Positions 28,154 to 34,513 are shown, numbered from the stretch's first letter. The stretch: DNA of 64,000 nucleotides from an uncultured Gammaproteobacteria bacterium (GCA_963748215.1 CAVVHS010000006.1:512001-576000); one strand, 5' to 3'. The notes: generated by a model from the sequence alone, not told the origin. Made by a program: numbers and translations.

Positions 28154-28795
28154 TTACAGGCGGCCCCGGCATCTGGTGATCAGCCTGCCGGCGCATTGCT
28201 CCAGATAGTCCCCGGGCGTATCCACGTCGGCGTGTTCCGGCAGACATACCCAATCCAGCCCGTGACGATGGCACTGTGCGAGGGTTGTTTCAAGCACCTG
28301 CGGTGTGCCCCAGGCGATGTCATCGAACAGACAGCGGTGATGCCCGGACATGCCGACCAGGTAATAACCGCCGTCCGTCGCCGGTCCGAGCACCACATCC
28401 GCGCCGGCGGCCAGCGCTGCGATGGCGGCATCGATATCCCCGGCGTCGAGCGCCGGACAATCCGCACCAATCAGCACCGCATGACGCGCCGCCTGCAGGA
28501 CGCTGTCCAGCGCCTGCGACATGCGCATGCCCAGGTTGCCTGCTGCCTGCTGACGCAGTACCAGCGGGTAACGCTCGCGACAATGCTGGAAGTGTGCGTG
28601 TTGCATATCAGGTGTGCACCACAATTCCACCGGACAGAGATCAGCATCGACCGCCTTGCCAAGGGTGTCGTCCAGCATGTCCGCATACAGTTCCGCGGCG
28701 GCCCCGGCACCAAGCAACGGGATCAGCCGGGTCTTCACCTGGCCCGGCACGGGCGCCTTGCTGAAGACCAGTAGCCGGGCCCGGGGAAACTTCAT
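28154..28795 (-). CDS. TIGR04282/DUF2064-type transferase of arsenosugar (rSAM-associated) clusters
   Basis: FSKAPVPGQVKTRL, GNLGMRM, IGADCP, LGPATDGGYYLVG, DVDTPGD. Confidence 0.9.
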   Translation of the reverse strand: MKFPRARLLVFSKAPVPGQVKTRLIPLLGAGAAAELYADMLDDTLGKAVDADLCPVELWCTPDMQHAHFQHCRERYPLVLRQQAAGNLGMRMSQALDSVLQAARHAVLIGADCPALDAGDIDAAIAALAAGADVVLGPATDGGYYLVGMSGHHRCLFDDIAWGTPQVLETTLAQCHRHGLDWVCLPEHADVDTPGDYLEQCAGRLITRCRGRL

Positions 28796-29496
28796 GCGCG
28801 ATGCACGGTGTAGAAACGTGCCAGGCGTTGCGGGGCGATGCCGAGAAAATAGCCCAGTCGCAGGCCCCACATGGTGAAGATGGTGCGCAGCACGCCGTGT
28901 TTTTCCCAACGCCGCGACGAACTGAGCAACGGCGTGGCGATCTGCACCGGCCGTCCCAGCTGCCTCAGGCGGCGACTCAGCGTGATGTCTTCCATGATCG
29001 GCAGTTGCGGAAAGCCGCCGGCCTGATCGTACAGTTTGCGTTCTACGAAAATGCCCTGGTCACCGGTGGCGATGCCGGTCAGGCGCGAGCGCCGGTTCAT
29101 CAGCCAGGCCACGCAGGCAAGCAGCCGGTGTCCACCCGACAGTTGCACATCGAACCAGCCCCACGCGGTGTGACCCGCGGCCAGTGAGTCGTGAATCAGG
29201 GAATCGGCTTCCGCCGGCGCCAGCGTGTCGGCATGCAGAAACCAGAGAATGGAACCTTTTGCAGCAAGCGCGCCGGCGTGCATTTGCACAGCCCGTCCGG
29301 ATGCGGTTTGCAATATGCGGTCCGCCATTGACGCGGCCTTCGCCAGGCTGTCATCCGTGCTGCCACCATCCACTACGATGACCTCGTGGCCATGATGGCG
29401 CAGCGGTTGCAGGCGGCGCAGGGTTTGCGACAGTATGCCGGCCTCGTTCAATACCGGGACGATGACCGAGATTATTGCGCGCTCAGCAACAGCCAC
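28792..29496 (-). CDS. TIGR04283-type GT2 glycosyltransferase of arsenosugar clusters
   Basis: SVIVPVLNEA, VVDGGSTD, GRAVQM, FLHADT, GDQGIF, IMEDI, SSRRW; GTG start inferred. Confidence 0.9.
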   Translation of the reverse strand: MAVAERAIISVIVPVLNEAGILSQTLRRLQPLRHHGHEVIVVDGGSTDDSLAKAASMADRILQTASGRAVQMHAGALAAKGSILWFLHADTLAPAEADSLIHDSLAAGHTAWGWFDVQLSGGHRLLACVAWLMNRRSRLTGIATGDQGIFVERKLYDQAGGFPQLPIMEDITLSRRLRQLGRPVQIATPLLSSSRRWEKHGVLRTIFTMWGLRLGYFLGIAPQRLARFYTVHRA

Positions 29497-30592
29497 GGTT
29501 TGTTTGCTGTGTTGAACAGCAGCCGTCGGCCGCAGGATCTGCTGGCGTACTGCAGTCCGCCGGCGTGTCTGAGAGCTCGATAAACGCACCGCCGTATGCC
29601 GGTTGCAGCAGCAGCTGCGCCGTGCCGTCGGTAACGGTCCGCCGCTCGCCGCGTTGCCAGTCAGCGCCGTCGTCGCCGGTCACCGCGGCAAACGGTCCGC
29701 GATACAGGAGCTCGCGGCCGGCGCCCGGCGCCGCGACCGGCTGCGGCTTGAGCGCTGTCAGCGTCACCGAGCGAAAGGTAATGCCATCGATGACGCGCCA
29801 TGGCCGGGCGTCCCACTTGTCGTAGCACACCGCAGTAAAACCGGCATCGGCGAAGGCCGTGAGCATTTCCTGTTCCTGGAATGACCCGGAGATGCAACCG
29901 CTCCACAACTCGGGATCCTGTTTCATGGCAGGCGTGATGATGCGGTCGCTTATGATATCCGCGATCGCAATACGTCCGCCGGGTTTCAGCACGCGAAAGA
30001 TTTCATCGACGAGCTGCTGCTTGTCGCCGTCGTCGACCAGGTTGAGCACGCAGTTCGAGATCACCAGGTCGACGGATTCGCTGGCCACCAGTGGGCGTTC
30101 CCTGCGCTGCAGCTGCTCCCAGCCGGCGAGCGCGAGATAATCGGCATGAGATCTGACCGGATGTTGCGCCAGGCGGGACGACAGCGCGTCGACGTCAAGC
30201 GCCAGGTCCTGGATGCGGCCTTTCAGGAAGCTGACGCGGTTGCCGCCAAGCCGGGCCGCCATTGCGTCCTGGTGCCGCCGCGCCAGCACCAGCATGTCGT
30301 CGTTCATGTCGACGCCGATGACATGACCGCTGTCGCCAACCAGTTGCGCGGCCATGTAGCAGATCTTGCCACCACCGGAACCGAGGTCAAGCACCACGTC
30401 GCCTTCCCGCACGTAACGAGAAGGATCGCCGCAGCCGTAGTCCCGCTCGATGATTTCCTGCGGCAGGATGGCCAACAGGCCGGAGTCGTAATCGACCGGG
30501 CAGCACAGCGCCTCCACCCGCGCCTGTGCGCCCTCCGAGTAGCGTTGCAGGACACTGTTTTCAACATTCATGCTCATGTCTTCATCCGTCAT
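29483..30592 (-). CDS. ArsM-like arsenite S-adenosylmethionine methyltransferase
   Basis: LCCPVDY, DYGCGDP, LDLGSGGG, VISNCVLNL, LWSGCISG, C-terminal GCC...GCC. Confidence 0.85.
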   Translation of the reverse strand: MTDEDMSMNVENSVLQRYSEGAQARVEALCCPVDYDSGLLAILPQEIIERDYGCGDPSRYVREGDVVLDLGSGGGKICYMAAQLVGDSGHVIGVDMNDDMLVLARRHQDAMAARLGGNRVSFLKGRIQDLALDVDALSSRLAQHPVRSHADYLALAGWEQLQRRERPLVASESVDLVISNCVLNLVDDGDKQQLVDEIFRVLKPGGRIAIADIISDRIITPAMKQDPELWSGCISGSFQEQEMLTAFADAGFTAVCYDKWDARPWRVIDGITFRSVTLTALKPQPVAAPGAGRELLYRGPFAAVTGDDGADWQRGERRTVTDGTAQLLLQPAYGGAFIELSDTPADCSTPADPAADGCCSTQQTNRGCC

Positions 30593-33012: not shown

Positions 33013-33665
33013 CCTGCCCGGTTGCGGCGCAGGCGCAGGATGATGCGCGACAGGAAAGCGAGGCTCGCGACGACCGCCAGCGCCAGCAGGGCCTTGCGCA
33101 CCACGTCCTGGCCACCACCGGCCAGCTCGCGGCCGGCATAGCCGAGATAGGTGTAGGCGGCACCACCGGGGGCCATGAAGATGAAGGAGCTGATGATGTA
33201 GTGTGAGAGGCGGATGCGCGTAAGTCCCAGGGCATAGTTCAGCAGGTTGAACGGAAACAGCGGTACCAGGCGCACGAATGCGACGAAACGCCAGCCCTCA
33301 TCCTCCACGCCCTCGACCAGGGTGCGCAGGCGGCTGCCGGCGCGCTGCGCGATCCGGTCCTGGACGAGATAGCGCGCGATCAGGAACGCCAGCGTGGCAC
33401 CCAGTGTCGCGCCGGTCAGGCTGTACAGCGTGCCGTATACGGGTCCGAACAGCGCACCGCCGGCCAGCGTGAACAGCAGGCCGGGCAGGAAAAATACCGT
33501 GGCAATGGCGTAGCCGCCGATGAATACCAGCGGCGCCAGCACACCGAGCTGGCCGACCCAGGCCGTCAGCGCATCGGCCGATAGCCGATCACGCCAGTAA
33601 AAGGCGGCGCCGATACCGGCCAGCAGCAGGCACAGCAGCAATACCCGGCGCGCGGTCGCCGTCAC
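33009..33665 (-). CDS. TVP38/TMEM64 (VTT/DedA family) membrane protein
   Basis: FLPGLLFTLAGGALFG, RLVPLFPFNLLNYALGLT; the GTG start overlaps the upstream TGA. Confidence 0.9.
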   Translation of the reverse strand: MTATARRVLLLCLLLAGIGAAFYWRDRLSADALTAWVGQLGVLAPLVFIGGYAIATVFFLPGLLFTLAGGALFGPVYGTLYSLTGATLGATLAFLIARYLVQDRIAQRAGSRLRTLVEGVEDEGWRFVAFVRLVPLFPFNLLNYALGLTRIRLSHYIISSFIFMAPGGAAYTYLGYAGRELAGGGQDVVRKALLALAVVASLAFLSRIILRLRRNRAG

Positions 33666-34513
33666 TGGGGCTGTTTCCAGCTGCGCCGGTTGATGGCGTA
33701 GTCGATGACCTTGCCGCTGAACGGCTGCAGCAACAGGCCAGGTAACCGCACGCAGTGCGCGGCATCGCGCCAGGTATCGATACCGATGGTCATGCCGGTG
33801 TGGCCGTCCTCGGGCTGGGCGCGGTAGGTGCCGAGCAGGCGGTCCCACAGCGACAGGCTGAAACCGAAGTTGGAATTCGTCTCGTGCTCGAGATGCGAAT
33901 GGTGCACGCGGTGCATGTCCGGCGTGACGATGAACAGGCGCAGGTAGCGGTCCAGCCACAACGGCAGCCGCACATTGCCGTGGTTGAACATGGACGTGGC
34001 ATTCAGCACGACCTCGAAAATCACCACCGCCAGCAGCGGCGGTCCCAGCAGCACGATGGCGGCGAACTTGATCAGCATCGACAGGATGATCTCGATGGGA
34101 TGAAAGCGTGCCCCGGTGGTGACATCGAAATCCAGGTCCGCGTGATGCACGCGGTGCAGGCGCCACAGCGCCGGTACCGCGTGAAACATGACATGCTGCA
34201 GGTAGATCAGGCCGTCCAGGATCACCACCGTCGCGACCACGGCCAGTATGTCGGGGATATCGACCTGGTTGAACAGTCCCCACTGCCGCTCATTGCACAG
34301 GGCGGCCACGCCCACGGCGGCGGTCGGGAACAGCAACCGGAGCAGCAGCGTGTTGAGGACCACCAGCGTAATGTTGTTCAGCCAGCGCGAGCCCTTCGGC
34401 TGGGTCAGGCTGCGCCGCGGTGCCAGCACCTCCCACGCGGCCATGGCCAGAAAAACACCGAAGAAGGCAGCCAGGCGTATCGTGGTCTCGTGCGTGCTGA
34501 CGAACTCATCCAT
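33662..34513 (-). CDS. Sterol desaturase / fatty acid hydroxylase family membrane diiron enzyme
   Basis: His boxes [34 protein letters not shown]. Confidence 0.92.

Follow-up and report, generated by a model that had tools for sequence, protein, structure and literature searches.

Genes for a COG0398 Membrane Protein, a Flavoprotein Reductase, and a Membrane Hydroxylase Extend an ArsS-Type Operon of an Uncultured Gammaproteobacterium

On a 64,000-nucleotide stretch of DNA from an uncultured gammaproteobacterium (GCA_963748215.1, CAVVHS010000006.1:512001-576000; this whole stretch is called the window below, and positions are counted from its first letter), the gene for ArsS, an enzyme of the radical S-adenosylmethionine (SAM) kind, stands in a row of seven tightly coupled genes. 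The row also encodes an ArsM-like methyltransferase, two transferases of the TIGR04283 and TIGR04282 families, and an extension composed of a membrane hydroxylase, a VTT/DedA-superfamily protein, and a flavoprotein disulfide reductase. The identities of the genes, their tight coupling, and the recurrence of each part of the set beside arsS in other genomes were observed directly. The extension is a real and recurrent partner of arsS, as judged from counts in 80 ArsS loci and from the presence of VTT and reductase genes beside arsM and arsS on a cyanobacterial plasmid. Our working hypothesis, to which we assign a probability of about 0.45, is that the locus is one operon making a ribose-based organoarsenical, with the extra genes acting as a membrane thiol/redox module. 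The core genes are already named by NCBI annotation models and the chemistry of ArsS is published, whereas the steps after ArsS and the origin of arsenosugar lipids are undefined in the literature examined; the extra genes offer a testable handle on them.

RESULTS

Layout of the operon

The seven genes are co-directional and translationally coupled on the minus strand, spanning positions 28154-34513 (coordinates were checked against the sequence). Together with the gene upstream of them, they are as follows.

34506..35489, minus strand: dusA, co-directional, upstream of the operon (NF008774, 516 bits against a cut-off of 269)
33662..34513, minus strand: membrane di-iron oxygenase of the FA-hydroxylase or "sterol desaturase" family, hereafter the hydroxylase (PF04116, 97 bits)
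33009..33665, minus strand: VTT/DedA-superfamily membrane protein of the YdjX/YdjZ type (TVP38/TMEM64, COG0398), hereafter VTT (PF09335, 88 bits)
31588..33012, minus strand: group-1 flavoprotein disulfide reductase (Pyr_redox_2, 210 bits, and Pyr_redox_dim)
30602..31564, minus strand: ArsS, radical SAM enzyme (TIGR04167, 447.8 bits against a cut-off of 300; PF12345 (DUF3641), 183 bits)
29483..30592, minus strand: long-type ArsM-like As(III) SAM methyltransferase (best model NF040538, where its 343 bits fall short of the cut-off, 500)
28792..29496, minus strand: GT2, a family-2 glycosyltransferase of GT-A fold (TIGR04283, 270.5 bits against a cut-off of 182)
28154..28795, minus strand: DUF2064, a nucleotidyl (CofC-like) transferase-like protein (TIGR04282, 198.7 bits against a cut-off of 134)

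The hydroxylase and VTT genes, like the VTT and reductase genes, share a GTGA start/stop overlap; 23 nucleotides (nt) separate the reductase gene from arsS, whose ATG start at 31564 was set by alignment to homologues, and 9 nt separate arsS from the methyltransferase gene. The latter overlaps the GT2 gene by 14 nt, and GT2 and DUF2064 are joined by an ATGA overlap. At the 5' end, the ATG of the hydroxylase at 34513 overlaps the stop codon of dusA (ATGGATGA), and the operon is therefore probably co-transcribed with dusA; the longest open reading frame (ORF) of the hydroxylase begins at an alternative start, 34558, and 34513 is an inner ATG. The dusA gene also lies directly upstream in four related loci (L001, L002, L004, and L036). 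A consensus scan found no sigma-70-like promoter between dusA and the operon genes, and promoter and terminator consensus scans of the locus gave no excess over shuffled controls. An Rfam search returned 0 matches and ARAGORN 0 tRNA genes. On the 3' side of DUF2064, an AT-rich spacer of 145 nt is followed by a new ribosome-binding site.

The first-pass annotation of this DNA had placed seven tightly coupled genes here and had read them as biosynthetic rather than as a resistance system; its account of which genes are present, and where, was confirmed. ArsR, ArsB, Acr3, and ArsC gave no Pfam matches in the 50 other gene-called ORFs of the window (E<=1e-8), nor did they appear in 13 ORFs scanned at E<=0.01 (10 of the 11 ORFs without an earlier match, 1 alternative-strand ORF, and 2 rescanned), the scans covering ORFs of at least 70 residues. 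An ars resistance operon (arsR with arsB or acr3 and arsC) was rejected because none of its genes was found in the scanned ORFs, and the combination of ArsS, ArsM, TIGR04283, and TIGR04282 without resistance genes agrees with a biosynthetic type. TIGR04167, TIGR04282, and TIGR04283, the profiles against which that annotation had proposed to check the core genes, were all matched above their curated cut-offs.

Neighbors of arsS in other genomes

A scan of one genome per species returned at least 598 ArsS-encoding stretches, of which the best 80 (58-83% identity, mostly from beta- and gammaproteobacteria) were analyzed; these are the loci nearest to the window ArsS and do not sample the family as a whole. 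Hidden Markov models built from first-round matches of the window proteins were run on all stop-to-stop frames of these loci, and the 50 loci with at least 6 kb on both sides form a full-flank subset. The counts are raw and uncorrected for shared ancestry, and those over 80 loci are lower bounds because many contigs are short.

GT2 near arsS: 54/80 loci; 39/50 full-flank loci
DUF2064 near arsS: 44/80 loci; 35/50 full-flank loci
VTT near arsS: 36/80 loci; 28/50 full-flank loci
Reductase near arsS: 35/80 loci (including the unrelated paralogue of L057); 29/50 full-flank loci
ArsM-like methyltransferase near arsS: 12/80 loci; 6/50 full-flank loci
Hydroxylase near arsS: 6/80 loci; 3/50 full-flank loci

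Thus, the association of VTT, reductase, and hydroxylase genes with arsS, whose absence from other genomes would have counted against the first-pass annotation on its own terms, does occur elsewhere, in the 80 loci and also on annotated plasmids of Pseudanabaena, Acinetobacter, and Thiodictyon. VTT and/or the reductase accompany arsS in 38 of the 80 loci (29 of the 50 with full flanks), and such arrangements span beta- and gammaproteobacteria, a Deinococcota metagenome-assembled genome, and a cyanobacterium. Where both are present (32 loci), they share a single stop-to-stop frame of ~714 residues in 27 cases. The fusion was confirmed by Pfam in L038 and by the RefSeq/PGAP name [quoted passage not shown] in Acinetobacter portensis. 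In four loci a separate reductase gene precedes the VTT gene; in the window the order is VTT then reductase, so that the single polypeptide is represented there by two overlapping genes.

Around arsS, VTT/reductase and the two transferases assort independently: of the 50 full-flank loci, 22 have both, 7 have VTT/reductase only (e.g., Pseudomonas), 17 have the transferases only, and 4 have neither. Other thiol-redox modules, namely, CcdA with thioredoxin and VTT-rhodanese, replace or accompany VTT-reductase near arsS. Orthologues of the hydroxylase adjoin arsS in L004, L013, L052, L062, L071, and L075. The hydroxylase gene is followed by a VTT-rhodanese gene upstream of arsS in L052 and L062, and in L075 (Neptunomonas marina HPM-16) the order is arsS - fused VTT-reductase - hydroxylase - GT2 - DUF2064. 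A Thiodictyon plasmid has the order GT2 - sterol desaturase - arsS - TIGR04282, and the window hydroxylase is 38% identical to the gene near arsS on Thiodictyon pTs417.

ArsS and the methyltransferase

The window ArsS matches TIGR04167 over positions 2-303 of 303. Its CX3CX2C radical SAM motif reads CNQSCLHC, its Cys-rich DUF3641 C-terminal domain ends in ...HCYGCTAGQGSSCGG, and the cysteines of ArsS are invariant across 14 aligned sequences; the closest relative is the ArsS of L001 (83% identity). Passages of a published study and of a preprint describe the in vitro adenosylation of trivalent dimethylarsenic, DMAs(III), by cyanobacterial ArsS to dimethylarsinoyl-adenosine (PMC13598754; bioRxiv 10.64898/2026.04.29.721666), and by analogy the window ArsS would carry out the same reaction.

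The methyltransferase was rejected as a cyanobacterial arsenosugar ArsM, since it scores 102.7 bits on NF038099 against a cut-off of 400; the ArsM of Pseudanabaena reaches 570 bits on this model. It matches the arsinothricin-type ArsM model NF040538 from end to end. It also aligns to CmArsM of Cyanidioschyzon (4fr0, E 2.7e-31) and keeps the cysteines of the YGCG, SNCV, and GC motifs, which we take to be the catalytic residues C72, C174, and C224; on this cysteine pattern, it would qualify as a general As(III) SAM methyltransferase (ArsM/AS3MT). Hence, the earlier ArsM-like call stands as far as the As(III) cysteines go but does not extend to the arsenosugar ArsM model. Further marks of the protein are LCCP near the N terminus, an insert of 38 residues, and CC...GCC in the C-terminal tail. 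This long type, in which the LCCP motif is conserved in 8/8 sequences, also follows arsS in seven other loci (L001, L002, L004, L016, L029, L069, and L078).

The flavoprotein reductase

The best NCBIfam model of the reductase is NF004991, on which it scores 471 bits, below the cut-off of 620; the model is likewise the best for the fused form, which scores 488 bits, and it gives the Pseudanabaena reductase beside arsM and arsS 833 bits. The protein has a CLHTGC redox pair, a HAYPT motif, and a basic C-terminal tail, and the tyrosine of HAYPTYAQ aligns with the catalytic histidine (HAHPT) of solved lipoamide dehydrogenases. Dihydrolipoyl dehydrogenase (LpdA) was rejected on a score of 360.7 against 408.8 bits and the lack of the catalytic His-Glu pair (HxHPTxxE), and mercuric reductase MerA was rejected on 366 against 454.45 bits, a single nonconserved cysteine in the tail, and no HMA domain found. 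The motif evidence, a tyrosine in place of histidine and a tail without conserved cysteine, leads us to regard the reductase as neither; MerA too has a tyrosine at the position of the catalytic histidine.

With 57159 representatives at E<=1e-3, this is a very large family, and 8 of the 150 nearest relatives carry an N-terminal VTT domain. In a FastTree phylogeny of 179 sequences, the arsS-linked reductases fall into three separate well-supported clades, comprising the VTT-fused forms (26 loci), the separate reductase-then-VTT genes (4 loci), and the window reductase with those of L002 and L004 (support 98). GGDCLxxGCVPSK, HxYPT, and a basic tail without conserved cysteine are common to 32 of the 33 aligned locus reductases, the exception being an unrelated canonical paralogue on the opposite strand in L057. 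The window reductase thus bears the signature of the fused forms (CLxxGC, HxYPT, basic tail) yet sits in a clade apart from them.

The VTT protein and the hydroxylase

VTT is 35% identical to Escherichia coli YdjX (E 8e-28) and 31% identical to YdjZ (E 5e-18), which by sequence places it in the COG0398 subfamily; the undecaprenyl-phosphate flippase type of DedA (COG0586) was rejected (BLAST E 0.58 to E. coli DedA). This weakens the earlier idea that VTT flips a lipid-linked product. Further relatives are a VTT-rhodanese protein of Roseibium (57% identity) and the TVP38 gene beside arsS in Pseudanabaena (39%). Passages of one study name this reductase fold as the commonest fusion partner of COG0398 and give the function of the subfamily as unknown (PMC10127716).

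For the hydroxylase, the ornithine-lipid hydroxylase OlsE was rejected (88.8 bits against a cut-off of 475), sequence comparison found no solved relative, and the Atlas gave the label "sterol desaturase family" only. An Acr2-type arsenate reductase was likewise rejected, by eye, for the rhodanese fused to VTT, the active-site loop of the L062 protein being of the short sulfurtransferase type; loop length separates sulfurtransferases from Acr2-type rhodaneses.

The transferases and an MTAP-type phosphorylase

The predicted structure of GT2 (pLDDT 96.1) has a generic GT-A fold. Its best Foldseek match is PcManGT (6yv7, TM 0.64), followed by WrtF, ArnC, GpgS, and TarS/P; these matches are to the generic GT-A fold only and do not separate a lipid from a soluble acceptor. 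The TIGR04282 protein resembles nucleotidyl transferases (CofC, E 5.8e-9; PDB 3cgx, E 1e-18). Outside the operon, the window encodes a further enzyme of possible relevance.

56919..57677, minus strand: MTAP/MTIP-type nucleoside phosphorylase (NF006599, 382 bits against 223; TIGR01694, 284 bits against 274.85)

This phosphorylase is a candidate for a trans-acting, adenine-removing step. MTAP lies in 3 of the 80 ArsS loci (L063, L074, and L079) and beside the ArsS cluster on plasmids of Burkholderia thailandensis and A. portensis, and a plasmid operon of Burkholderia glumae reads hypothetical - MTAP - TIGR04283 - TIGR04282 - TIGR03169 oxidoreductase. Its placement with TIGR04283 and TIGR04282 would fit a sequence of phosphorolysis, nucleotidyl activation, and glycosyl transfer.

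Comparison with known clusters

Like the arsM-arsS arsenosugar pathway of Synechocystis, the window has arsS next to a putative As(III) methyltransferase gene, and its ArsS has the CX3CX2C motif and a Cys-rich C terminus; it differs in its gammaproteobacterial host and in a methyltransferase that falls outside NF038099 and is closest to the arsinothricin-type model. The original genetic work on the cyanobacterial pathway, by Xue in 2019, reportedly leads through ArsS to 5'-deoxy-5'-dimethylarsinoyl-adenosine. The ArsS/TIGR04283/TIGR04282 neighborhood defined by NCBI, presumably the one formerly called "rSAM/selenodomain-associated," is present in full, above cut-offs and in the usual order, and the window operon adds to it ArsM, split VTT and reductase genes, the hydroxylase, and dusA.

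Plasmid pPg_02 of Pseudanabaena galeata CCNP1313 carries TVP38 - "mercuric reductase" (NF004991) - arsM - TVP38 - arsS, with separate VTT and reductase genes as in the window; it differs in its canonical arsenosugar ArsM, its two VTT genes, and the absence of TIGR04283, TIGR04282, and hydroxylase genes within 8 kb. Counterparts of all seven window genes are found on a plasmid of A. portensis, where arsS - fused TVP38/FAD oxidoreductase - DUF547 - TIGR04283 - TIGR04282 - methyltransferase - phosphate transporter are accompanied by MTAP and a sterol desaturase, the latter 50.7% identical to the window hydroxylase. The Acinetobacter cluster is plasmid-borne, has VTT and reductase fused, differs in gene order and strands, and contains extra DUF547, PiT, MTAP, and CcdA/thioredoxin genes. 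The arsinothricin arsL-arsM genes of Burkholderia gladioli likewise pair a radical SAM enzyme with an ArsM, and the window methyltransferase matches NF040538 over its full length; in the window, however, the radical SAM partner is ArsS rather than ArsL, there is no arsQ, the NF040538 score is below the cut-off, and the GNAT acetyltransferase ~1 kb beyond the operon (26718-27158, plus strand) was rejected as the arsinothricin-resistance protein ArsN (ArsN2 model, 32 bits against a cut-off of 125).

The same genes away from arsS

Contexts without arsS were drawn from a plasmid collection, in which three reductase and six hydroxylase contexts were sampled by hand. In Citrobacter, Pseudooceanicola, and Pseudoalteromonas, the fused VTT-reductase gene is accompanied by a TIGR03169-like oxidoreductase or DUF547, by an ABC importer, and by a CDP-alcohol phosphatidyltransferase, and the Pseudoalteromonas cluster adds a sterol desaturase. 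These clusters share with the window a COG0398 VTT with a thiol/redox partner, and DUF547 and the sterol desaturase are accessories common to them and to ArsS-type clusters; they contain no arsS, arsM, or TIGR0428x genes. The ydjX-ydjY-ydjZ-ynjA-ynjBCD-ynjE genes of E. coli K-12, with ynjF (1833401-1841403), which encode two VTT proteins of the COG0398 type, ferredoxin-like and AhpD-like proteins, an ABC importer, a rhodanese, and a CDP-alcohol phosphatidyltransferase, look related in kind. Titles and abstract openings among the literature matches listed held no characterization of the fused VTT-reductase or ydj-ynj clusters.

Marine alphaproteobacteria have the plasmid homologues nearest to the window hydroxylase (56-59% identity), and these are located in metal-resistance islands. 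In three of the six sampled records the gene is divergent from an ArsR/SmtB regulator, and in three of the six it lies within a few kilobases of a VTT gene. On a Roseibium plasmid, the gene for a fusion of an ArsR-family regulator with a rhodanese domain (L096:4242-4901, minus strand) is divergent from the hydroxylase and VTT-rhodanese genes (L096:5001-6851, plus strand), which hints that this pair responds to reactive sulfur or thiophilic metals.

DISCUSSION

A proposed pathway and the role of the extension

We propose that the ArsM-like enzyme would make trivalent methylated arsenic, to which ArsS would add a 5'-deoxyadenosyl group to give a nucleoside of the dimethylarsinoyl-adenosine type, a step established for cyanobacterial ArsS. 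The MTAP-type phosphorylase encoded elsewhere in the window would then remove adenine, and the nucleotidyl-transferase-like TIGR04282 protein and the TIGR04283 glycosyltransferase would re-activate the arseno-ribose and pass it to an acceptor. The hydroxylase, VTT, and the reductase would form a module concerned with thiol/redox and lipid homeostasis at the membrane, and they would assist the ArsM/ArsS step, not the transferase step. Within it, VTT and the reductase would be the two-gene form of a widespread fused membrane flavoprotein, which most likely keeps the arsenic substrate or the cysteines of the enzymes reduced at the membrane, and the hydroxylase-VTT pair may be a metal(loid)-stress membrane pair co-opted in the operon. 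A supporting redox role at the membrane is suggested by the recurrence of interchangeable thiol-redox partners near arsS, and the independent assortment described above, together with the transferase-free cyanobacterial cluster, makes the module seem tied to the ArsM/ArsS step. A direct role of the extension in arsenolipid formation, with a lipid-bound final product, is possible.

Several observations weigh against this proposal. None of the 80 loci carries all seven window genes, and gene content between dusA and arsS differs among the closest relatives: all three extra genes are there in the window, hydroxylase plus reductase in L004, the reductase alone in L002, and none in L001, whose four core genes are bounded by dusA and by the downstream gene seen in the window. 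The extension is thus both variable and dispensable. No ArsM lies nearby in 68 of the 80 loci (44 of the 50 with full flanks), so that methylated arsenic is only the presumed substrate of these proteobacterial ArsS enzymes, and the window methyltransferase itself falls under the cut-off of every ArsM model. Furthermore, full-length fused VTT-reductase is found on 90 plasmid records and ArsS on 54, mostly in different genera, which indicates that the VTT-reductase module is not arsenic-specific, and its company of an ABC importer and a CDP-alcohol phosphatidyltransferase in arsS-free clusters points to phospholipid head-group chemistry.

Alternative explanations

That last context favors the arsenolipid pathway put forward in the first-pass annotation, in which the transferases build a lipid-linked arsenosugar (e.g., an arsenosugar phospholipid), VTT carries it across the membrane, the hydroxylase tailors an acyl or head group, and the reductase supports the process. 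Arsenosugar phospholipids are mentioned for cyanobacteria and algae in excerpts of the literature, and passages of two reviewed sources describe DedA-superfamily proteins as lipid transporters or scramblases found fused to lipid-synthesis enzymes (PMC10193950) and propose the COG0398 type as a phospholipid scramblase (PMC10127716). The fused VTT-reductase stands with DUF547 beside a CDP-alcohol phosphatidyltransferase in the three sampled plasmids, with a sterol desaturase in Pseudoalteromonas, and E. coli ydjX...ynjF is of similar flavor; the hydroxylase position in L075, between the fused protein and the transferases, and the polyprenyl-phosphate-type mannosyltransferase that heads the GT2 structural matches, with ArnC also among them, are in keeping with such a pathway. 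On the other hand, the structural matches of GT2 are generic (TM ~0.6-0.65) and include GpgS, which uses a soluble acceptor, the hydroxylase occurs in just 6 of the 80 loci, and the hydroxylase-VTT pair is also found alone in metal-resistance islands with no head-group enzyme. CDP-alcohol phosphatidyltransferase was found in 0/80 ArsS loci, as was the ABC binding protein of the arsS-free clusters. The claim that VTT flips what the transferases build fares worst, given the 7 full-flank loci with VTT/reductase alone, the 17 with the reverse, and the Pseudanabaena cluster, which has VTT/reductase without transferases. As an arsenic-related extension, the desaturase, VTT, and reductase genes do recur near arsS, but they also occur without it, in metal-resistance islands and beside CDP-alcohol phosphatidyltransferases. 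The arsenolipid interpretation is thus partly supported, and we hold it to be doubtful as the full account of the locus. No paper linking arsS or arsenosugars with TVP38, DedA, or sterol desaturase was present among the literature matches listed, in which subscription journals were mostly uncovered.

The variable dusA-arsS interval among the closest relatives and the many plasmids that carry the module without arsS could also mean that the hydroxylase, VTT, and reductase genes are a mobile stress module that came to lie between dusA and arsS by chance, adjacent to the core genes without sharing their function. This is improbable in view of the start/stop overlaps that join the extra genes to each other and lead into arsS, of VTT or reductase genes in 29 of the 50 full-flank loci across such distant hosts, and of three separate reductase clades that are all arsS-linked. 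A true substrate other than arsenic, such that ArsS-family enzymes adenosylate another methylated chalcogen or metalloid (selenium or sulfur), appears highly improbable to us: the window arsS is directly followed by the gene of an ArsM-type enzyme with conserved As(III)-binding cysteines, ArsS uses DMAs(III) in vitro according to passages of PMC13598754, and the Pfam scan of the 50 other window ORFs revealed neither selD nor another selenium gene. Still, TIGR04167 includes selenoproteins, as stated in part of PMC13188914, TIGR03169 oxidoreductases, whose family is named for a SelD fusion, are neighbors of arsS in 11 of the 80 loci, VTT-rhodanese fusions occur in L052, L062, and Roseibium, and most arsS genes lack a nearby ArsM.

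A more specific version of the redox proposal, which we consider rather improbable, is that the Tyr-variant reductase is the bacterial enzyme, so far missing, that reduces pentavalent arsenicals such as dimethylarsinate, that a substrate-importing VTT holds it at the membrane or works with it, and that ArsS clusters are salvage pathways. This would account for the lack of a nearby arsM at 68 of the 80 arsS loci and for the presence of VTT and/or the reductase at 38 of them, and if true, environmental methylated arsenic would be turned into arsenosugars, possibly arsenolipids, in ordinary heterotrophic Proteobacteria.

Beyond the window, our survey extends arsS widely into nonphotosynthetic Proteobacteria and shows a modular neighborhood of VTT-reductase, MTAP, TIGR04283/TIGR04282, hydroxylase, DUF547, a ~340-residue protein, and extracytoplasmic function (ECF) sigma factors. 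Since several carriers are cultured (Neptunomonas marina, Pseudomonas peli (L030), Methylotetracoccus oryzae (L069), Thiodictyon syntrophicum, and Pseudanabaena galeata), each arsS partner is directly testable. For research on DedA proteins, the locus offers a concrete context in which to place the unexplained fusion of COG0398 with a flavoprotein reductase.

Other neighbors of arsS and other features of the window

The ~340-residue conserved protein, which belongs to no Pfam or NCBIfam family and has no counterpart in the window, is encoded directly after arsS in 20 of the 80 loci and on Burkholderia plasmids (e.g., L092:19327-20346, from the B. glumae plasmid, and L063:10881-11957). The gene for a 464-residue permease, weakly similar to sodium/solute symporters, separates arsS from the fused VTT-reductase in L038 (11026-12420) and 9 other loci, and ArsS loci of Pseudomonas and its relatives repeatedly encode a DUF3047 protein (L044:15537-16319 and 8 other loci). 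ECF sigma factors of the TIGR02943 type, often with a zf-HC2 anti-sigma gene, adjoin arsS or the fused VTT-reductase (L050:9060-9689 and 12 other loci; also L083, L086, L090, and L092), which suggests stress-responsive control of such clusters in other genomes; the window operon has no ECF sigma factor and is joined to dusA instead.

Just 3' of the operon (27494-28009, minus strand), a 171-residue glycine-rich membrane protein with its own AGGAGG site and no Pfam or NCBIfam match is encoded; at 80-92% identity in L001, L002, L004, and L036, it is better conserved than ArsS. Elsewhere the window holds ordinary housekeeping genes, as expected for the chromosome of a GC-rich gammaproteobacterium (serS, ftsK, lolA, clpA/S, icd, acnA, purB, mfd, and others). 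Here, mfd consists of two overlapping ORFs in different frames on the plus strand, 52132-53946 with UvrB_inter, MFD_D3, and CarD domains and 53916-55631 with DEAD and TRCF domains, and may reflect a frameshift, a sequencing error, or a pseudogene. A rhodanese-domain protein (39555-40259), an unassigned ORF of 208 residues (40448-41074), and an FTR1-family permease (41101-41907) adjoin a two-component system at 42259-44276. Finally, the co-directional genes at 44300-48597 (minus strand), for a short-chain dehydrogenase, a TPR protein, a Haem_oxygenas_2-type iron enzyme, an AMP-binding enzyme, and a "thermostable hemolysin" family protein (PF12261), are followed by an MMPL transporter gene at 49379-51802 and look like a small lipid or secondary-metabolite cluster.

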